The translations under genes were made by a program, and so were the position numbers. The notes under the pieces were generated by a model. It was not told the DNA's origin. It searched no databases and was given only the letters and a program-made list of their open reading frames with translations. Below are positions 1,153 to 34,500 of a DNA stretch of 64,000 nt, piece by piece. This DNA comes from Schmidtea nova (Eukaryota). The stretch spans positions 5,146,001-5,210,000 of the forward strand of contig CM097884.1 in the NCBI GenBank assembly GCA_044892505.1. The letters run 5' to 3'. Positions within the stretch are counted from its first letter, which is position 1; each line of letters opens with the position of its first letter.

Positions 1153-4145
1153 CAATATTGAATAACTGATGGTTCTTATTAATTATCCTAAACTGTGGGA
1201 AAGTATATATCTTATTATTTAAATAACAATCAAGATACAACTGGTGTGTTAGTCCAGTATCTTTCATGCTAATCCCCTTAGTCCTCATACACGCGTCGTC
1301 TCCCATCAAACTATAACATTTCGATCTAAGAAACACCCACTCTTCATACAAAAGCCCTTTATTCTAGTCTTTGAATTTACCAATGACAGAATCAAGGCTT
1401 TTACTGTATAAAGGATAATGTGGGTCATAATTAGAAGTGTCCAGCAAGCAATCATTTATCATAGCCGGTGAAAGACTGTTAAGACTACAGTTTTTTTACC
1501 TCAAGAAAAAAGGAATCAGTATCTCCAGCAACGATGTTAATTTCACAGTTGAAGTCATCACGATAGTTTTGTAACTCTTCATACAAAAACTGGTATATTT
1601 GAAGTTTGGATAAATCCAGTACAGTTTGACCGATGTAGCTGGGTCTATCCAAACATACTGATTCCTTTCACAGCAAAACAGAAATAACGTCATTGTCAAT
1701 TTTAATGGTATTTTTAAATGTAGGTTTAGATGCGTATGTTTAAAAGTTTTTGTGTGGAATTACACAAACGCAAATTTAATCGTTTTACAGATTTTCAACA
1801 GTCTCGCCGTAAAGACTGTTGCTAAATAATTTATAAAAGTTTTTATCTAATTTATTTGTCGGCGCTGCTCGTAACACCGTATTTGTATTGATATAATTTT
1901 CAAAATTTTATCTTGTGTGAATTTTATTGCCCTATGCACATATGTTATATTTACACCTATTTTAATAAATAGTTGCAGAAGCCTGCAACGAAAAACGTAG
2001 TTCCTCTTTGGATAATGCGTAATCTCAACCTTTGAACCGGGTGCACACATCTTTTCAGCGGCAACGGGAAGATCATCCAGATTGTCGTGAATTGACGTCA
2101 GTATCTCTAAATCCATTTCTATGGTATAACCACAATGAAGTGCATCTAAATTTACCGTTGTGCACTCAACAATTATTTCATCAAATAAGTGGCCACCTGT
2201 GACCCATTCAAAATTTGCACAAGGCAAGGATTGACTTAAAGTCCAACCATATAAGTTATTTATGTCAATATATAGGAATGCCGTATCCGGGCTAGTTTTG
2301 ACATAATGTTTATTGAAAAACGTTAGCCCGCGACGAATACCGCCCTTGAAAAAGTTATAAATCTCCATATCGGTGAGGAGCTCAATTGGAGAGTTTAAAG
2401 TTAATAATGCCGAATTCCACGACATGCCGGGAATTCCTAAAAGATTTAATGGCTCAAGCCTATTATGTTTAATGGACTTTACCCGAAATTGCTGAAAATA
2501 ATCAGCCAAAAGAAAGACATCGAGCTTTAAATAAACCATCATGTAATTAGAAAGTGAATTACATAATGTTTCAAATTCATTGTGCTGCTGCGTATTCTAC
2601 TGGTGTAACATGTTTCCAGATAGGAGGTAATGATAAAGTCGATCTTAAAACTTCCAATGAAGTAGCTGCATCATAAGGAGAGATACTCTTGGCTGTTCTT
2701 ATTGTGTCGCGAAATTCTGATTGAGTCAATGGTAAAGAAGTCAAAGTTTTGACCGCATTACTTAAAGACTCGCTCACAAATTGATACGAGTGGATAAACT
2801 TAGCTGTTAATGTGTCAATATAAGCAAAAAGACTTAAAACCTTTTCGCTAGTTTACGGAATACAACTTATATTCCAAGTATTATATTTGGAAAGACCGTA
2901 TTTTAAATCAGGGTGTAGATCATACCCCTTTTAATTATGAAAGATGACAAGAAGGGTATGTCTAATCTGTCTGGATTTATTGCAAGAAGAAAATGCAGCT
3001 CCAAGAAATATACCGGAAAAATGGTCGTGATCGCAAACAGGGTTATTTAATAATTTTTTGCAGAAGTAACAAGTTGTGCTGTTGTCAAAAGATAATTGTT
3101 GGGTGGCTGTAATTACCATTTTCTTTTGATAATTTTTAAAAAAATATGGCGTCACGATATATTTGCTTATGGATTCAATTTCATTAAGAAATCGATCGAC
3201 ACAATCTAAACCGAAGAAAGATTTATATATTTAAACTCCAATAAAATTATTAATATGAAGGAGACCGGTGAAATAGGTAAATGTTTCTAAAAGTACCTTG
3301 TGTCTTTAGGTAAGGCAATGTGTATAAGGTGGTACCCAACTGATTTTTTTACAAAGATCCCTATGTCTATTAAAAGCCTCATCATTCCTAAAACCGTTTA
3401 AACATCGAGAACACTACTGACTACAAATCTTAACTGGTGTAATTGAGCTTTTTCGACAATTTAGAAATCTATTTAGGTCTGTAATGGCAAGATAATGATA
3501 AAAAGTTTTATTTTCTAAAAGTAGTAAATTTATAGTTATTCCTCCAACTATCTTACTACGATAAATAATATCTAAAGGGGTGTTTCAATACTACATCATC
3601 ATTACCAACAGAAATATCTATCAATGCCTTTTCATCATATGTAAAAATATTGATACTATAGCCAGTGTTTTGTCACTCAAATTTACTTATATTAGCCAGT
3701 TTCATGGGCATGTCATTTGGGTCATAATTTAATTGTGTAATATCATAAGAAGTAGGACGATTTCTATATTGTCTGTCTATGGTGTCATATTTTATAATAG
3801 ATAAAAAACTATAAAGAAAACAAAAGTCGTCATTATTAACTACATTTACAAGAGAACTTTAATTTTTTATAGATCTTGAGGTTTCTATAAAATTACTGCC
3901 ACTCAACCTACTTATTTCGCAAAAATTTAGTCAGAACAAAGCTTATATATTCAATTTTGAAGATAGTCCAATTGCTCCCTTTCTCATTTACTTTAACAAT
4001 TTTTTCATTTAAATTAGCAATACTTTCATCAATGAAGGTATCACTCCAAACTCTGGCAGAATTCGAGATGACGGAAGATTGTAATTCATCATCCTTCTCA
4101 AATTCTACCTTCAGACAGAATTGAATTTTAACTGATTTTAATTTA

Positions 4146-4150
<5 letters not shown>
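1153..4150 (-). pseudogene. Polinton/Maverick (adintovirus-type) protein-primed family B DNA polymerase, disrupted by stops and frameshifts
   Basis: Manual translation across frames gives, in order: GSNFIET..SLVNVVNNDDFCFLYSFL (~3900-3800); INLLLLENKTFYHYLAITDL; endonuclease VII-like insert CYFCKKLLNNPVCDHDHFSGIFLGAAF; YLKLDVFLLADYF; GGIRRGLT; LYIDINNLYGW; catalytic GDTDS (~1513-1527); DTSNYDPHYPLYSKSLDSVIGKFKD*; EEWVFLRSKCYS; KGIS. The N-terminus abuts a (TA)n tract and similarity ends at ~1153. Confidence 0.88.

Positions 4151-4231
<81 letters not shown>
4150..4231. repeat. (TA)n microsatellite
   Basis: Direct reading, about 40 units. Confidence 0.95.
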
Positions 4232-4233
<2 letters not shown>

Positions 4234-4275
4234 ATTTAGATAATAAAATATACGTTACAGATACCGTTTTTAAAA

Positions 4276-4945
4276 TTAAATTATAACATGTGTGTCGTTC
4301 AAGCCAGAATTAACTTCGACTACCCTATGTTCAATTTGAAAATTATTATTATTATTATTATTATTATTGTTTGAACCATTAAAGACACATGATTTGAAAA
4401 ACATTTTATTCCTATCAAACAATTTGTCCTTCAAAACAGCATCAATTCTCTTTACAAAGTATTCAAACCAAATAGATTCCATTGCCGAATAAGCAACCAA
4501 TCGGCCTCCAAATGTTTCATTTTTAGCAAATAAGTGAGCAACTCGAGTTTGTTATCAATAAATTGTTGTTTGTAATGAACATTACGTAAAAGAATAGAAA
4601 AATTCTCTCTGTGATTTGTTTGGCTATTGATTTGAAACTCAGAAAACCAGCGCGCTTCAGGGATTTGGATATCGTTATTGAGCTTGAATATTAAGCACTG
4701 CTCTGAATACAAACTCCCATGCGATAAGAGGAGTTCGACAATATCCTGCTCAGCGATCGGAAAACTAGCTAAAGAAAAGGTTTGAGGTCCAAATTGCTGT
4801 GGAATATAAAATTTAGATGATATAATTTGATATGTTGCATAAATGTCATAATATTTTATTGGAAATAGAACAAATCGCTTCTCGTTTGATATCAATAATG
4901 GCTCATTTCTGTCTAATATTTCAGCTCGTCGCTCTTTCGCAAAAT
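4276..4945 (-). pseudogene. Highly diverged ribonucleotide reductase small subunit (R2/RRM2-like), intronless, one frameshift
   Basis: NEPLLISNEKRFVLFPIKYYDIY resembles R2 EPLL.ENPRRFVIFPIEYHDIW. IQIPEARWFSEFQ resembles VQITEARCFYGFQ. After a frameshift near 4530-4560, KNETFGGRLVAYSAMESIWF resembles EATYGERVVAFAAVEGIFF. The C-terminal half is not alignable. Confidence 0.75.
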
Positions 4946-4949
4946 ATTA

Positions 4950-7900
4950 AAAAAACTCCAAACCGATACCGAAACACAAAAACATCTCCCAACTTCCAAA
5001 AATTGCATCGATAAAAAACCATAACTCCTTCATTCATAATAATCCTAAATCAATTCAATCTTCAATAACAATTAAACCAAAAATATACAACAAGCCATGC
5101 GCACACAAGCGCCAACGACACCACAATTCATGCGCAGACATGGGCCGAAACATTCCCCCCTTGATCCCTTCTAGCGGATCAACCGACCAATTTAGCTCTA
5201 GAGGGCAAACCTTGCTTATAGGTCTCATTATCTCATTTCCTCTGCTAAGAATCCTTAACACCCGCACCTTTCCATCTTCTTCAGGACAGACTTCCGCTAC
5301 TCGTCCAAGCTTCCATGATTTTTTACATAATCCGTTTTCCAATAACCAGATCAAGTCCCCGGTTTTTAAATTTTTCCCTTCTTTTGCCAATTTCTTCCTA
5401 TTCCTCCATCCAAGAACAATCTCTTATCTCCATCGCCCCCAAAACTTCTCGCTCAAATCCTGAATCATCTTCCACCGCTTTTTTATGCCAGTTCCCATAA
5501 GTTCTATTTTTTTCTCGCTAAATCTTTTATAACCGGGCTTGACGAAGTGATTCGGCGTCAATATTTCTTCTTCTTCCGGATCCTCACTCATAGTTGTCAG
5601 TGGTCTATTGTTAACCATATCTTCCGCCTCAGCAATGACGGTTTGCAGCTCTTCGTCAGTCAACTCAGCAACTCCAGTAATAGCTAATAAAGCCTTTTTC
5701 GCTTCCTTAACTAATATCTCGAACATCGCCCCAAAGTGTGATGCACTGGGAGGGTTAAAAATCCATTTTATCCTATCATTTTTGAGCCCCTTTTGGATTG
5801 AGTACGTATCAATCTCCACTTTCTCAATTTCACTCGGGGCTCCTACAAAATTCGTCCCGTTATCAGACAAGACTAACATGGGTGTTCCACGACGTGCGAA
5901 ACTTTTGAATGCACTGATGAAACTCTCTGTGTCCAGATGGATCTCCAAGTGGACCGCTCTTGTCACGAGGCAGGTAAATAAACAAAAATAACGCTTCGCC
6001 CTTCGATTTCCACGTCCCCTTATGACCGTTGTTATTGGTCCTGCGTAATCCACCGCAACCTTTTTAAACGCCTCCAGAGGCTCATTCACTCTAAATCCAG
6101 GGAGTGGCTCCATAATCTGTTCCAGTGTCTTGGCTCTCCCTTTTTGACAATTCACACATTCTTTCCTTATCCTTTTAATCAATTGTCGTTCCCCCACAAT
6201 CCAATACCTTTCGTTGACTTTTGACATCAAATACTCCGTTCCACCGTAGTGCTTCAATGACTGGTGTATCTCACCCGACTTTTCCCTGAGAGTATTAGTG
6301 GATACTTCGTCGCCGGATCCATCCAAGTTGCATTTGCCAAACGACTCCCACCCTACATCATTCCGTCATCCCAAATGTTGGGGCATAACGATTTCAATGT
6401 GTTTTTCGTTCCCACAAACTTACCCCTCTGAATGTCTTCCCATTCTTCAGAAAACTCAATTTTTTGATCTTCACGAATCAATGTGACCTCCGCATCCTCA
6501 ATTTCTTCACTTGTAAGTGCCCCATTTTTTCGTTTTGTTTTTTCTTGTTTAATATCTTCAATGAATCTGTTCAGACTAGCTCTTGTACGGACCAGTCTTC
6601 TCCATTTGGAGTAGGTTTTCGGGTCTAAGCAACTCGTTTTCCAAGCTGACTCTATATCATCTCTTCTCGTAATAAGGAAAAATCTCTGTATCCAATTCTG
6701 ATTCTTGGTCTCCTGCGCTCGTTTATTCTCCCAATTTGGTCAACTATCCTCCTCCCCTTGCAGAAACTTTGGCCCTTCAAACCATACCTTGGAATCTCTT
6801 AGTTCTTCTGCTCTCATTCCTCTTGATAGCAAATCTGCGACGTTTTCTTTCGTCGGTACATACCTCTACTGCGGTCTTCTCGTTGACCTTTGAATTTCCT
6901 CGATTCGGTTCGCAACAAATACCTTGCAATAACGCCCTAACTGCGTTATCCAGTACAAGACATCTTCACTATCCGTCCAGAAGGTGATATCTTACACATT
7001 TGTCTTCAAACATTGTGATACCTTTAGCCCTAATTTCACTCCCAATTCCGCCGCCAATAGTTCCAATCGCGGAATGCTCTCTACCTTAATTGGTGCTACT
7101 CTGGATTTGGCTGCGATTAGGTTAGTTCTCACGTCTCCCACTTTACTCTCTCTGACGTAAGTTTCGGCCCCGTATGCGCATTTTGAAGCGTCAACAAAAA
7201 TGTGGATCTTCCATTCATTTTTTGTATCTCCAATTAAATATCTTTCACATCTGATTTCGTTTAAAATCGCAAATTCTTTCAGCCAACTTTCGACCTTCCT
7301 CAACAGATTTGGTGGCAACAATTCATGCTAATCTGTACCAGCTAGCCAAATCTCTTGCATCAACAACTTACCTCTAATCAGAAAACTTCCAGCAAATCCC
7401 AAAGGATCAAAGATTCTGGCTAAACGACTAAGAAATCCTCGTTTCGAGAGACATTGTTGATTTGGGGGTTTGACGTCGTAACCAAACTTATCCTCTGCCG
7501 CAACCCAAACCAGTCCCAGGGTTTTTACTGCCACCTTGTTTTCCTCATTCAAACTTAAGAGCTTTGGTATCCTCTCCATAGGAAGTTTCTAATACCTTTT
7601 TGTCATTAGTGAGCCATTTATTCGTAACCATTTCTGCCTTTTCCCAAATACTAATAATTTCATCCTTGATCCTGATCACTTCCTCGACCGATTGAAAAGA
7701 ATCCATCGTATCATCCATGTACGTGGATTCTATTATTGTTTCTGCCGCTCTCGGAAACCATTCTCGAAATCTCTCAGCATTTCGTTTGGTGACTAACTGC
7801 ACCAGAAACGGAGATATGTTTAGTCCGAAGACTAGCCGTTCAAATTCAAAACCCTCAGTTTTTCCATCTTCATTCCAAATAAATCTTAAATATTTTCTAT

Positions 7901-9845
7901 CCTCTTGATTCACCTTTATCTGGAGGTACATTTTTTGTATATCACAAGCAATCGCCACTGGATGTTTTCTGAATCGTAATAATATCTCAAATAAATCATT
8001 TTGTAGCTTTGGCCCTTGTTCAATAGCATCATTTAAATTAATACCATTATTTTTCGCTGCTGCATCAAAGATTATTCTAATCTTGGTTGTCTCCTTGTCC
8101 ATTTTTATCACAGGAAAATGTGGCAGCCACCACTTTGTCTCACAAAATTCCTTCTCTGCCAACAACCTGATATACCCTTTTCGCACGTAGTCATTGAGCA
8201 CCTCTTTGTAGCTTTCTTTTAACCTACCGTCTTTCGCCAACCGATTGCCTAGACTCCTCAAACGCTTTTCCGCCATTTTCATATTATCTTGAAGTTGATA
8301 CTTGTTCACCCTCCATAACAAGCTAACCGTGAACCTTCCATCCTCGCACGACATACCTTCGATCGCCTTTTGCATTAATATTTCTTCACTCTGGCTGAAC
8401 TGATTCTTTTCAACGTGTCTCCTCAATTTCCCAAAATTGCCGCATCTGGTCTTCCAATCTCTCTGTTTTTCAAAAATAGCTCTGGACAAAATGGGAGTGT
8501 CGTGGAGCTTGATCCCTATTGACCTTGCCCAGACATGTCCACCCGAGAGGCGTCAGTCTTGCAACTGGCTCATCCCTCATCCTTCATTAGAACATCTATC
8601 TGCGGTCTTTCCCCAAGAATCGTGAATCGAATGTCCTTTAGGTGCTCCCAGTTATACGCCACCTTTGCCAATTGCATGCATTTAAGTCCCTGGTGACGCT
8701 TTTAACGAATAGGGTCTTAAAGTTGACTTTCACCTTGTTGTTATTGCTTGCCAATATCTCATCTATCGGCTTTGTTCCTAACATTTTCGATTCCCCCCCG
8801 ATCACGCCCACTGGCATATTTTTCCATAGTCCCCCAGCCTCTAGTTTCTGTGCAGCCCAATCGCTAATGTAACTAACATTACTTGCATCGTCCAGCAATG
8901 CATTTACTCTTATCCTCTTTCCCTTCGATTCTAACACAATAGGTATTGTCCTGAGACTTATGTAACCGATATCATTTAACCTTCAAGTTGCAACTAACCG
9001 AGTGGTATGCGTTTGCGGTTTTTGGTTGCTGTCCCCTGCCAATTCCTTCATTCTTCAAATATGTAGCAAACTATGATGATTTCCTCCACATTCTTTTTCC
9101 TTACAAAATCCTGGTCTGGTGCATTCTCTCACTCCATGTCCTTTTCTTAAGCAACTATAACATAATCTCCACTCTTGAACTCCCTTTCTCCTGTCATTTA
9201 CTGATAATAGTTTGAATTTTGGGCATTGATCCAGATAATGCGCACCCTGACATTTAAAACACATCAACCTGCTTTGATCTTGTTGCATAATTATTCCTAC
9301 CTTACCTTTACTTGAGTTTTGTTTTACCTCATTGCCAGAGTTCGTAAAGTGTGAGTACCTTCTATTGTCAATCTTTTCGGAAGTCTTGAAGTTTTTCTTC
9401 CCGTACTGCCAATTAGAATCATTTTCACGACCAAAACCATATAATATTTCATTTGTCGATCGCGTAAGGTCAGCTTCATTTTGCAACCACTTCTTAAATT
9501 GTGTTATTGATTCCTCACCTTCCTCTTTCGTTTGCTCTCTTTTCCATCGAATAAGTAGAGAAGCTGGTAATTTCTTTAACAATTGTTGCAAGAGACAGCC
9601 TCTCTGTAAGTCCTCTTCTCTTCCGATTGCTTTAAACCGTATCTCCATGGATTCCAACAATCCAACGAAAATATCCAAGTCTTTTATTTCTCCTTCGCGA
9701 ACCGGCCGAAATTTATCTACTGTCTCTAACATAGTCAGGTAACTTCGTTCTTCACCTCCGTAACGCCGTTTCAATTTCTCTTTCTCCATTTAGTAACCTT
9801 CGGCGGTATAACCTAGTGTATCTATCATTCGTAGAGGTTCAACTA
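4950..9845 (-). mobile_element. BEL/Pao LTR retrotransposon, 5'-truncated and decayed
   Basis: Domain order: gag (DUF1759-like ..LKRRYGG, three Cys/His knuckles, 9055-9845), protease (LLDDAS, 8638-8990), RT (WWLPHFPV, RIIFDA, YMDD, 7545-8489), RNase H (FVDASKCAYGA, RLELLAA), integrase (HHCC, SDNGTNF, 5424-6326), C-terminal DUF5641-like region. PPT AAGGGGGGAA is followed by TGTTTCGG (3' LTR start at 5152). The distal LTR end is approximate. Confidence 0.92.
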
Positions 9846-28019: not shown

Positions 28020-29220
28020 AAATTTGAATTTCCAAAGGTCAAACAAGGTCAAACCTTCAAACAAGGGTATCATTCGAAAGGTCTTGGAAAGGTCTATCCA
28101 ATGGTCATACCCTTGAAGGTTTATGGAGGGTCCTTGACCTTCGAAGGGTCAAAAACCTTCAACCTTTTTTAAACCTTATAATATATATATCAAACAAAAG
28201 GTAATTGAGAGGTAAGTAAGATGGTCATACCCTTGAAGGTCTATGGTGGGTGCTCAACCTTCAAAGGGTGCAAAACCTTCAACCTTTTTCAAACCTTGTG
28301 TGTAATACATCAAACAAAAGGTAATTGAGATGTGCACACAATGGTCATACCCTCGATGGTCTATGGTGGGTGCTCAACCTTCAAGGGGTCAAAAACCTTC
28401 AAACCTTATAAGTTATATATCAAACAAAAGGTAATTGTGAGATGTGTGTGTGTTACAATTTACAAAGGTAATTGAGAGGTAGGTATGCTGGTCATACCCT
28501 TGAAGGTGTATGGAGGGTCCTTGACCTTCGAAGGGTCAAAAACCTTCAACCTTTTTCAAACCTTATAATATATATATCAAACAAAAGGTAATTGAGAGGT
28601 AAGTAAGATGGTCATACCCTTGAAGGTCTATGGTGTGTGCTCAACCTTCAAGGGGTTAAAAACCTTCAAACCTTATAAGTTATATATCAAACAAAAGGTA
28701 ATTGAAATGTGCACACAATGGTCATACCTTCAAAGGTCATACCCTTGAAGGGTCCAAGGTTCAAATTTTTAAAACTATATAATATGTATATCAAACAAAA
28801 GGTAATTGAAGGGTGCACACAATGGTCATACCCTTAAGGGTCCAAGGTTCAAATTTTTAAAACTATATAATATGTATATCAAACAAAAGGTAATTGTGAG
28901 ATGTGTGTGCGTGTGTGTTACAATTTGCCAGAAGAGTGTGAGTGTGTGTGTTACAAATCCTTTTTTTCAAACCTTATAATATGTATATCAAACAAAAGGT
29001 AATTGAAATGTGCACACAATGGTCATACCTTCAAAGGTCATACCCTTGAAGGGTCCAAGGTTCAAATTTTTAAAACTATATAATATGTATATCAAACAAA
29101 AGGTAATTGTCAGATGAGTATGTGTGTGTTACAATTTGTCTGGCGAGTATGTTTGTGTGTGTGTGTTACAAATCCTTATTCAAACCTTATAATATACATA
29201 TCATTCGAAAGGTAATTATG
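28020..29220. repeat. Subterminal tandem array of ~100-130 bp units
   Basis: About 9-10 recurrences of TATCAAACAAAAGGTAATTG alternating with GGTCATACCCTTGAAGG and AAAACCTTCAA. Confidence 0.85.
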
Positions 29221-29388
29221 GTGTGTGTGCGTTATAATTTTTTCTATTTCCTACCTGAATTACAACAAAGACATTGCAATTCATGTGCAACGAAACAAAG
29301 ACATTGCAATCCATGTGCAACGAAACAAAGACTAATAAAACTTGTAATAATAATTTTTGCACACGTATCTTAGTGTTTAATAAGGATC

Positions 29389-29570
29389 ACAGTACACATT
29401 GAACGCGCGTGGAACGCGCGTTCTTCTCCTCTTGTTGTTTAAGACAAATAACAGTACGCATTGAACGCGCGTGGAACGCGCGTTCTTCTCCTCTTGTTGT
29501 TTAAGACAAATAACAGTACGCATTGAACGCGCGTGGAACGCACGTTCTTCTTCTCTTGTTGTTTAAGACA

Positions 29571-29572
<2 letters not shown>
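29389..29572. repeat. Three 62-bp tandem units, each with a CpG-rich hairpin
   Basis: Units start at 29389, 29451 and 29513; each contains GAACGCGCGT-GGA-ACGCGCGTTC (third copy has one mismatch). Confidence 0.9.
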
Positions 29573-29603
<31 letters not shown>

Positions 29604-29988: not shown

Positions 29989-30294
29989 TTATAAAAAATA
30001 TAATAANNNNNNNNNNNNNNNNNNNNNNNNNNNNNNNNNNNNNNNNNNNNNNNNNNNNNNNNNNNNNNNNNNNNNNNNNNNNNNNNNNNNNNNNNNNNNN
30101 NNNNNNNNNNNNNNNNNNNNNNNNNNNNNNNNNNNNNNNNNNNNNNNNNNNNNNNNAAACTTTTAAAAATATATAAATAGCATGCGAAAGATATTTGAGA
30201 TGTATGTATGTGTATATTTTCAAACCTTCAAGATGTCAAAATAAAATAATTAAACTACCACAACGTAATATATATTTATTTTCCTACCCATTTT

Positions 30295-30477
30295 GACATT
30301 GCAAAACAGATGCAAGTTAACAAAGACATTGCAAAACAGATGCAAGTTAACAAAGACATTGCAAAACAGATGCAAGTTAACAAAGACATTGCAAAACAGA
30401 TGCAAGTTAACAAAGACATTGCAAAACAGATGCAAGTTAACAAAGACATTGCAGTTGCAAGCCAAGTTAACAAAGAC
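30295..30477. repeat. 30-bp tandem array (5 perfect copies + 1 variant)
   Basis: Unit GACATTGCAAAACAGATGCAAGTTAACAAA. Confidence 0.95.
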
Positions 30478-30573
30478 AAGATGTCCAAAAAGACTAATTA
30501 TTAATCACAAAGTGCATTCTCTTAGCCAATGATAAAAATAAATTAAATGAAAATACATATATTTTGTATGACA

Positions 30574-31089
30574 TTATATGTATATCACATGATATTCATC
30601 AATATTAATACCACAAGACTCACACTTATCAATATTTTTTAAACATTTTGAACAAATAATGACATGTCCACAAGGTAAATATAAAATGCCAACTCTATTG
30701 ATATTACATATTGAACATGTGAGAAATCTTTGTTTGGTTTCTTCCAATTTCTTGGTTACATTTACCTCTAAAATATCCACATTCAGCATGAAAGTTCGAA
30801 TAATAGTACGATATTTTCCAAGTCGAAATTCCATACATGACCAGAAAATGGTATTCAAATTGAATTCAGTAGAATCGATATCATTAAGAATCATAATAAA
30901 ACTGGATAATTTCATCATGGATTTATCATATCCGAATGATTCTGTTAAACCAATTATTAATTTATTATTGAAGGATTTGAATAATTTTGAAAGAATGTCG
31001 ATATCGCATTTCTCAATCGATGTTAAAAGGTCATCAAGTATTAAAAAGGATTGGATCCAATTGTCCAAAGTAATGAAATTATCTGTAAC
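30574..31089 (-). CDS. RING-HC (IAP-type C-terminal RING) E3 ligase-like gene, exon 2
   Basis: Open frame from acceptor AAACTAG|GTT to stop. The C-terminus CSICNINRVGILYLPCGHVIICSKCLKNIDKCESCGINIDEYHVIYI is a C3HC4 RING with an IAP-like hydrophobic tail. No BIR domain. Confidence 0.8.
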   Translation of the reverse strand, partial: VTDNFITLDNWIQSFLILDDLLTSIEKCDIDILSKLFKSFNNKLIIGLTESFGYDKSMMKLSSFIMILNDIDSTEFNLNTIFWSCMEFRLGKYRTIIRTFMLNVDILEVNVTKKLEETKQRFLTCSICNINRVGILYLPCGHVIICSKCLKNIDKCESCGINIDEYHVIYI

Positions 31090-31133
31090 CTAGTTTAAAA
31101 TAATTAATTTAAATATATATTTTTAAAACTAAC

Positions 31134-31160
31134 TTTATTTGTTTCTTTATTCATTTTCAT
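31134..31160 (-). CDS. RING gene, putative exon 1 (MKMNKETNK)
   Basis: ATG..AAA|GTTAGT donor, 44-bp AT-rich intron (31090-31133), phase 0, giving a ~180-aa protein. Confidence 0.55.
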
Positions 31161-31329
31161 CAATCAATACTATTTACAAGTTGTATTTATATTGCAAAAA
31201 TCAACCAATTTAATAACCAAACATTTTATTGACCAACCAATGATTGAAAGTTTTGCTAAACTGTTACATTGAAATGATGATAAGTGACATTGAAAATTAG
31301 GTAACAGTATATTTATTATTAGAAATATG

Positions 31330-34300
31330 TTCAAGTAATGAGCTTTTGCACATCAAAACCATCACAGAATAGGTTCTGCTACTAGTGTTCTGCTCGCAAT
31401 GTTCTGCTACTAAATGTTCTCTCACTATGACAAATACATGAAAAGTTATTATACTATTGAGATAATCACACATATTATTCTTAAATTATAGTACAAATAT
31501 ATCAAAAATATATGAAATATACATTACATACTTGAAATATTATCACAAAGTATCATTACATACATGAAATAACATTATACTATTGTGCAAATTACATACA
31601 AAATATCATCATACTGCAATTACATCGAAAATCACCAAAATTATACACAAAATATGAAAAGTACATAGAAATTCGTCACATATAAAAACATTACATATAT
31701 GAACTATTATCAAAAATACATACAAAATACATATAAATTTATCACACACGTACAAAATATCACCATACTATAGTGAATAAATATACATACAAAATGTCTG
31801 AAATACAAACATACATAAAATATCATCTTACTATAGTTTGATAACATAGAAATACATGAAATATCCTCAAAATACAGAAACTTTCACAGATATATAGATT
31901 CATCATACAAAATATCATATATAAGAAATATCATTACAGATTATCACATGCATGAAATATTATTATAGTGCAAATTACATAGAAAATAGCAAAGATACAT
32001 GAAATATCATCACAAAATACACATAAAATTATAGGAAATTTTCACACTAGAAATAATAATAATAATAATCATAAAAAGAATATTATCACGCCAGTACAAA
32101 ATTATACAGAATATTATCACATTGAACAAAAGCTTATCATATATATGAAATATTATTATACTTTTATGTAAACTACAAAGAAAAATACAAACATATACAC
32201 AAAATATTATCACATTATAGTGTCTAAACATTGCAAATACTCACAAAATATGTGAAATATGACCATAAAATATCAAAGAATCACAAAGAAAATATATAAA
32301 AGATTATCATATTTTTGTTTGATAACATAAAAATACATTGAAATACATAAAAAATTATTAAAATGCATACAAGTATCATTACATACATGAAATATCATTA
32401 CACAAAATGTTATAACGCATGAAATATTACCATACAAAATATCAAAAGTACATAGAAATAAATCCTATACACAAAGGATATCATTACATATATGAAATAT
32501 CATCATACTTTAATACAAATACAGACAAAATATTATCATGCTATATTCCAAATACACTTAATATTAAAATAGAAATATCATGCATACATACATACATATG
32601 AAAAGTGGTCATGTTATAGTCAGTCAAATGCATGAATTATTATCATACTAGTGTAAAATACATATATAATATCAAAAAATGTATCATACATACAAAGGAT
32701 ATCATCACAAAGTATCAATACATACATTAAATATCATCACACTATAGTACAATTAAATAGATAATCATCAAAATATACAGAAATTAATCAATTTCACAAC
32801 AATACTCATTAAAGAAATATCTACATACTTGTGCAATTACATAATAAATATACAGAAATACCAAAATTATATGAAATATCATCACAAATATCAACACATA
32901 TGAAATATTATCATACATACACAAAGAATATAATAACATATTTAGAAAATTATCACATACAAAATATCAAAAGTCCATTACACATATAATTTAACAGTAA
33001 TAAATGTTTAATTAATGAGCTTTTGCACATAAAAACCATCACAGAATAGGTTCTGCTACTAGGGTTCTGTTCGCAATGTTCAGCTAGCAATGTTCTGCTA
33101 CTGAATAAATTTGATGAAAATGTAACAATGTATTATGAATGGAAATAAATCTCAATCATTACAGTAAATTCTACTTTAAAATGAGGTTGAATGCATGAAA
33201 TGTCATTATTCTATAGTGATAATACATGAAATACTCTTTAGATACATGACTTTAGATGCATCAAATATTATCTTACTATAGTTTGATAACATAGAAAAAA
33301 TAAATAGAAATCATCAAAATTATACAAAATATTAAAAAAAAAATATTAAATTAAATATCATCATAAAGTACATAGAAAATCATCAAAAATACACAGAAAT
33401 TCATCAAATTCACAACAATAATCATTAAAGAAATATCTACGTACTAGTGTCATTACATAAAAAATATCTGAAAATTTAAGATATATCATCACAAATATCA
33501 ACACACATATGAAATATTATCATATACAAAGGATATAATCACATACAAAGGTTCATTACACATACAAAATATAATATATCAACATACCTTAATGTAACAG
33601 TAATAATTGTTCAAGTAATGAGCTGTTGCACATAAAAACCATCACAAAAGATGTTCTGATACTAGGGTTCTGCTACTAAATGTTCTGCTAGTCATGTTCT
33701 GCTACTGTAAAAAAATTAATGAAAGTTATATGAATGGAAATAAAACTATCATCATACTATAGTGCAAATACATTAAAATATTCACAAAATGATATTAGAT
33801 GCATCAAATATTATCTAACTATAGTTTGATAACATATTAAAAATAGATCATTTGAAATGTCATCACAAAATACATAGATATTCATGTACAAAATATCACA
33901 AAATATCACAAATACAATAGAAACACATATCAAATATATATGAAATGTCATCACAAAGTATCATTAAATATATGAAATATCATAATTCTACAGCGTAATT
34001 ACAAGAAAATCTCCACAAAATATCACAAATACAATAAAATTCATCAAAAATACATAGCAATTCATCAAACAACAAATATTCACATAATAATTCTCATTAA
34101 AAGTGTATCAGTAAATGTAATATGCTTTCACAATTTTTCTGTTACATTGATCGAAGCTCATATGCTAATGATTGTTATTTTAGTATATGTGTGAATAATA
34201 ATAAGCTTTTGCACATAAAAACCATCACAAAAGATGTTCTGTTACTAAAGGTTCTATCCGAAATGTTTTGCTAGTGGATAAATTTAATGAAAATTATACG

Positions 34301-34500
34301 AGTGACAATAAATTGTTAGAGTAAATTCTACATTAAAATGAAGAAAACCGATAGAAAATATTAATTGGTGAAAATATTAGAACAAATGATGCTGAATGAA
34401 TTGTAATAAATGTTCGAGTAATAAGCTTTGGCAGATAAAAACCATCACAGAATAGGTTCTGATTCTAAAGGTTCTGTTCGAAATGTTCTGCTAGCATGAA
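31330..34500. repeat. Low-complexity ATATCATCACAAAATAC-rich region punctuated by five copies of a conserved ~85-95 bp motif
   Basis: Motif TAATRAGCTTTTGCACATAAAAACCATCACA(G/A)AA..GTTCTG(CTACTAG) at ~31333, 33011, 33611, 34196 and 34414. Confidence 0.8.

Follow-up and report, generated by a model that had tools for sequence, protein, structure and literature searches.

What is a fragment of R2, the small subunit of ribonucleotide reductase (RNR), doing beside a Polinton polymerase gene in a planarian genome? In the 64,000-nucleotide stretch of Schmidtea nova DNA analyzed here (the window), two overlapping minus-strand frames, 4452-4946 and 4276-4551, code for an R2-like piece, which a preliminary description had read as a pseudo-enzymatic R2 carried as Polinton cargo. 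The homology to R2 is real, as the frame 4452-4946(-) matches PF00268 with an E-value of 1e-5, under the curated cut-off, and human RRM2B with an E-value of 5e-13. The piece is a defective copy, made from a spliced host mRNA, and it lies within the long terminal repeat (LTR) of a BEL/Pao retrotransposon, where it is a dead passenger. Our main reading, to which we assign a probability of about 0.7, joins this origin to a role for the parent gene, which likely encodes a non-catalytic beta-prime subunit predicted to dimerize with, and likely to stabilize, the catalytic R2. The features of the locus are as follows.

1847..4340, minus strand: fragmented Polinton/Maverick PolB remnant, host of the LTR insertion and a bystander; 73-81% DNA identity over 2501-4359 to other PolB copies
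4341..4367, no strand: (AAT)n tract at the insertion site, matching the poly-Asn region of the PolB N-terminus
4368..5152, minus strand: 3' LTR of the BEL/Pao retrotransposon, 785 bp, TG...CA, holding the R2-like piece; extent shared with other copies
4420..4938, minus strand: partial retrocopy of the spliced host pseudo-R2 mRNA, covering the parent CDS from nt 36 to about nt 600
near 4465: 48-nt internal deletion in the retrocopy
near 4523: frameshift in the retrocopy
near 4925: exon 1/2 junction in the retrocopy
5153..5171, minus strand: polypurine tract immediately before the LTR, read from the sequence
5172..9800, minus strand: decayed BEL/Pao internal region with gag (DUF1759), RT, Pao peptidase A17, integrase, and DUF5641

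The DNA of the window retrocopy is 92.8% identical to nt 36-506 of the parent; it ends at about 4420, and the 3' half of the parent gene is missing from it. Among the LTR copies that reach the exon 1/2 junction, 24/26 cross it without a gap or intron. Several changes listed in the preliminary description were confirmed, namely the single frameshift, the Glu to Gln replacement (QTNH), and the replacement of the radical Tyr by Phe, the latter two being inherited from the parent gene. The proposed Asp to His change, on the other hand, was a misalignment: the 'HG' of the window corresponds to 'YW' in the parent and is peculiar to the window copy, and the true Asp site aligns to Ser/Asn next to a 3-residue gap. 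Likewise, the second ExxH, described as not alignable, can be aligned in the parent, where it reads D-K-x-x-Y. The view of the window copy as a functional gene is unsupported because this copy is truncated and frameshifted and the LTR copies evolve nearly neutrally. The idea of a repurposed ferritin-fold protein with a long history as an open frame does not hold for this copy; it does hold for an intron-containing host gene that is conserved in S. mediterranea.

This intact gene came out of a Pfam search of the genome, which found a canonical R2 on C3 (L031, G000:C3) and a divergent full-length R2-like gene on C2; R1 is present in the same genome as one gene, in two matches. The gene on C2 (G000:C2), the parent, encodes 282 aa in four exons separated by three GT-AG introns (51, 56, and 59 nt). 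The 3' half of the gene exists in one copy (of 39 matches, 1 is full-length). Reads from four sequencing runs cover introns 2 and 3 without a break, as reads from DNA would, and so speak neither for nor against expression. The S. mediterranea ortholog, Smed-rrm2b-1 (AFJ24826, I1ZIH2), has the same length and the same residue losses, and 232/282 residues (82%) are identical without gaps. In print and in its annotation it figures as a normal beta subunit of RNR; in a literature search covering open-access papers, we found no paper noting the lost ligands or calling planarian rrm2b-1 inactive, nor any report of an animal beta-prime, and PMC11410931 contains no passage on RRM2. The parent start codon is directly preceded by tandem repeats of about 555 bp (L033:1-1290).

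By its sequence, the parent is a pseudoenzyme. Compared with the iron ligands of human RRM2B, the Asp is lost, the first Glu is Gln, the His (His121) and the next Glu (Glu166) are kept, the last Glu is Lys, and the last His is Tyr, while the radical Tyr is Phe. This intact gene keeps two of six ligands. In both species the protein stops at ENPFK, short of both the pathway Tyr and the tail that binds R1. Among the marks of a catalytic class Ia R2, the full ligand set, the radical Tyr, and these two C-terminal features are absent. The C-terminal tail of R2 is what binds R1, according to the available text of PMC3824934; because it is missing here, the suggestion that the protein acts as an R1-binding decoy is unlikely. 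The ferritin-like R2 fold is intact. The parent matches PF00268 with an E-value of 7e-31, and its structure model, built on an alignment rich in canonical R2s, has a pLDDT of 88.5 and superposes on human R2 with a TM of 0.78-0.81. Identity is 25-30% to canonical R2s and about 24% to its own catalytic partner. We ran profile searches against two collections, one of 5.8 billion proteins, from which 7,995 candidates were scored, and one of 1.84 billion representatives. Before scores dropped to generic R2s, they yielded only three family members: AFJ24826 and two proteins without a name (45-51% identity, or 48-51% by a second estimate), which keep the residue-loss pattern of the parent. An Atlas search returned generic R2 clusters only, and a PDB search with the helix E-F piece gave no match.

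A ligand-deficient R2 paralog is found beside a catalytic R2 and R1 in one genome, which is the Rnr4-type arrangement, and a beta-prime in a beta/beta-prime heterodimer is the predicted and, in our judgment, best reading for the parent. Our reference set comprises 230 canonical R2s, all collected through their similarity to the very sequences under comparison, and 135 alignment columns are at least 90% conserved in it. The catalytic planarian R2 deviates in 15 of the 135, and the motifs RFVxxP and EARC are lost from it. The pseudo-R2 retains 12/15 of these columns as against 33/120 of the others (Fisher p 1e-4); another count gave 11/14. We also picked out nine departure positions post hoc. 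The two catalytic proteins from planarians differ at all nine and the pseudo-R2s at none, while 229 of the 230 references differ at two or fewer, the remaining one being a truncated sequence. Six of the 15 departures fall inside the predicted dimer interface, but neither this enrichment (p 0.10) nor the retention of interface residues by the pseudo-R2 (p 0.39) is significant. A complex model of AFJ24744 with AFJ24826 scored 0.92, with the best of three controls at 0.36; this mark was reached by 51/78 solved and 2/108 mismatched pairs. Such a pass is expected because R2 dimers have been solved, and it indicates likeness rather than binding, as close cousins pass too. Contacts agree at 94% or more between model runs, the partner pLDDT is at least 82, and among the best contacts the arm of the pseudo-R2 (35-37) touches residues 106-126 of the catalytic protein. 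In the mechanism we propose, beta (the catalytic R2) would keep the di-iron/tyrosyl site and the R1-binding tail, and beta-prime (the pseudo-R2) would supply the N-terminal arm and helix residues that beta lost, dimerizing with it and likely stabilizing it.

The N-termini of the two proteins also differ: the catalytic planarian R2 (L031, P0148) starts with 'MEILL' and has no N-terminal extension, and the pseudo-R2 keeps 24 N-terminal residues with an LSDITN motif. We take this motif to resemble a destruction box.

In vivo data come from S. mediterranea. In the available text of an RNAi screen (Hubert et al. 2015, PMC4603911), 'loss of stem cells' is the score both for rrm2b-1 knockdown and for rrm2b-2 knockdown; the phospho-H3 (PH3) check covers rrm2b-2 only, and the rrm2b-1 result comes from one screen. 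Gene 3978 is rrm2b-1 there, and WISH shows neoblasts. The first 400 nt of the rrm2b-1 EST (supplement 1 of that paper), translated by eye, match AFJ24826 residues 11-140 at 129/130 positions. Judging from E-value and name, rrm2b-2 would be the canonical AFJ24744; RRM2-2 is the gene dealt with in the accessible parts of PMC5293490 and PMC4494696. Cross-silencing is unlikely because the two paralogous CDS, with S. nova as a proxy, share no exact word longer than 10 nt. The parent is a real pseudoenzyme and probably an essential one.

It could be essential in another way than by supporting the catalytic R2, for example as an inhibitor, a localization anchor, or a partner of an unrelated protein, and this is the alternative that we take most seriously, although we consider it unlikely. 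The missing R1-binding tail and the non-significant interface enrichment fit such a role, as does a divergence from canonical R2s that is far larger than that of Rnr4 from Rnr2 (55% identity). The WISH data of PMC4603911, in the part available, also list CNS expression for rrm2b-1 but not for rrm2b-2. Against it, both genes fall into the same RNAi class, the pseudo-R2 keeps residues that its catalytic paralog lost, and the R2 fold is preserved.

The beta-prime reading has known parallels. Like Rnr4 of Saccharomyces cerevisiae (beta-prime, Y4), the parent is an R2 paralog without a full set of iron ligands, and its model superposes on yeast 1sms with a TM of 0.82. However, Rnr4 lacks three ligands, whereas the parent lacks four plus the radical Tyr, and Rnr4 carries the R1-binding C-terminal tail, of which the parent has none. 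Rnr4 is nevertheless needed, and it stabilizes the di-iron center of Rnr2 in the heterodimer (PMC2704937, PMC3824934, available text). It is 55% identical to Rnr2, as opposed to about 24% for the parent and its partner, and it arose at the yeast genome duplication (PMC2704937, available text). The relation between the two would be one of analogy rather than orthology, because RNR4 is a product of that whole-genome duplication; our trees were built without Rnr4. The available text on the apicomplexan R2_e2/PfR4 describes a further non-canonical second R2, reported in an alpha2-beta-beta-prime complex, with Tyr replaced by Phe in some members and the C-terminal Tyr absent. It differs in keeping most functional residues and the R1-binding C-terminal motif, whereas the parent has no tail, and it is reported there from Apicomplexa only. 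Among the literature searched, a non-catalytic beta-prime is described only in yeast and Apicomplexa.

A planarian stem-cell gene taken as an ordinary RNR subunit is thus a pseudoenzyme by sequence, and stem cells reportedly die when it is knocked down. Should it prove to be a beta-prime, an animal would have arrived independently at the yeast arrangement, and at a more extreme version that lacks the R1-binding tail; half-of-sites use and R2 cofactor assembly would then become testable with two small proteins and RNAi. A fuller picture, to which we give somewhat less than even odds, is that the planarian RNR small subunit is obligate and fully partitioned between a beta with the cofactor and the sole R1 tail and a tail-less beta-prime with the dimer arm that beta lost, stem cells needing both. 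This would be the first animal beta-prime, and it would let asymmetric radical transfer be tested in a natural system with one tail and one radical. It would possibly be part of a wider unrecognized family of ligand-less R2s that includes chytrid fungi.

Analyses of the origin of the parent gave a mixed outcome. The intron after helix F has the same position and phase in the parent and in the canonical R2 gene, which favors a duplication in the flatworm line; the tree that includes chytrids points elsewhere. In quick trees with some rows left out, a planarian clade was not rejected without chytrids (AU p 0.88; 26 rows, no P0004), and it was borderline rejected when two chytrid degenerate R2s were added (AU p 0.049; 21 rows), the pseudo-R2 then joining them by long branches (support 94, unstarred). 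Ligand-less R2s were seen in four chytrid fungi (P0005, P0007, P0008, P0088). The same pattern occurs in many unnamed proteins, 25/71 of the long representatives, with an acidic Phe-ending tail in 12/25; the chytrid and unnamed proteins are possibly an unrecognized beta-prime family.

We then consider the LTR-borne copies. A total of 790 genome candidates was found for the R2-like repeat, and 150/150 of those scored match it (identity 68-100%), which puts the number of R2-bearing LTRs at 150 or more. On the parent CDS the copies start at nt 36 and reach to about nt 460-600, with 86-94% identity. At the 22 codons that differ between the parent and S. mediterranea, the copies agree with the parent in 842 cases and with S. 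mediterranea in 103, and have some other residue in 191; because parent residues are favored, the capture would be later than the split of the two species. The host mRNA would have been captured by template switching during reverse transcription and then amplified with the LTR.

The window copy itself is an ordinary LTR gene capture, notable only for its location in the LTR and its hundreds of copies. LTR-mediated retroposition of spliced mRNA pieces by template switching is known (Tan et al. 2016, PMC5131818; maize Bs1), and the available text of PMC5131818 includes capture by a Pao element and chimeras of several genes. The retrocopies described there lie between LTR parts in few copies, whereas the piece described here is inside the LTR itself in at least 150. 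Such hundreds of copies will confuse RRM2 annotation and read mapping in the S. nova genome. At about 90% identity to the mRNA of an essential gene, they are also a possible source of cross-targeting piRNAs.

That the piece serves the retrotransposon, whether by acting as an RNA element or by being translated as a leader that reads on in frame into captured genes and gag, seems quite improbable. One copy does have a 980-aa frame running from the LTR through the PBS and HSP70 and ubiquitin pieces into gag, the copy number is high, and pN/pS is 0.76 among copies and 0.84 for private changes. These ratios, slightly under 1, are compatible with weak constraint, and they come from copies chosen as best protein matches, a sample biased towards open frames. 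Nevertheless, stops occur in 17/53 copies, frameshifts in 14/53, and private stop changes number 11; the Phe125 position varies freely (L in 28, F in 21, I in 4), and the window copy is a broken 3' LTR.

It is very unlikely that the parent is catalytically active with a different cofactor, as an R2c or R2lox variant. The replacement of Tyr by Phe at the radical site recalls R2c, but those proteins keep all carboxylate and His ligands (PMC3824934, available text) and have Glu as the first ligand, whereas the parent has lost four of six ligands, one of them to Lys, and has neither the full carboxylate set nor the Glu.

As for the carrier, the LTR unit of the window opens with TGTTTC straight after the polypurine tract and closes in CA; neither a 5' LTR nor a primer-binding site (PBS) of this element was found within the window. 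Other elements have LTR pairs (L045 and L046, 98.1% and 99.0% identity), and among 53 distinct copies the 5' motif was found in 34/53, the 3' motif in 51/53, and the PBS in 6/53, polypurine tracts being read by eye. Target duplications of 5 bp were flagged in 16/53 copies, mostly uninformative inside AAT arrays; clear ones outside microsatellites are those of L011, L027, and L068, plus L009 by eye, and some copies are solo with 5-bp target duplications. The element inserted into the poly-Asn AAT tract of a decayed PolB gene. Polinton cargo is scarcely credible: the R2 piece does lie directly upstream of the PolB fragments on the same strand, but it is bounded by the TG...CA termini after a polypurine tract, the PolB flank is common to 0/29 other R2-piece loci (shared sequence begins at the AAT tract or at 4368), and tblastn searches for R2 at 11 other PolB loci and in six Polinton neighborhoods of 20 kb came back empty.

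The Polinton family itself is very large and young, with 20,421 first-look candidates and copies 95-99% alike (L089-L101). Its PolB is 1,370 aa long, matched no Pfam polymerase family, and is accompanied in other copies by A32-type ATPase and integrase-chromodomain ORFs.

A Penelope-type or SINE-type carrier, suggested by the AAT flanks and neighboring GIY-YIG elements, was ruled out by the TG...CA ends, PBS, polypurine tract, and target duplications. Penelope-like elements ending in AAT tails do adjoin several LTR copies (L010, L023, L007), and both kinds of element favor AAT arrays. The ends of these Penelope-like elements bear what we take to be a hammerhead-like motif.

Non-autonomous relatives (L046:7059-9998(-); L045:5758-6960(-); L024, L025, L044, L062) contain strings of captured mRNAs fused in frame to gag. 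HSP70 and ubiquitin pieces were identified there by Pfam, and HSP90-, ABCD-, and glutathione-reductase-like pieces are presumably also among the captured mRNAs. Ubiquitin often stands directly before gag, where it could act as a cleavage signal. In one LTR subfamily (L029:1309-2232(-), L060, L061), a Cys-rich frame without a Pfam match, presumably RING/IBR-like, is fused upstream of the R2 piece. Elsewhere in the window, 28077-29580 and 30265-34500 are tandem arrays with units of about 110, 62, and 30 bp as well as longer degenerate units.
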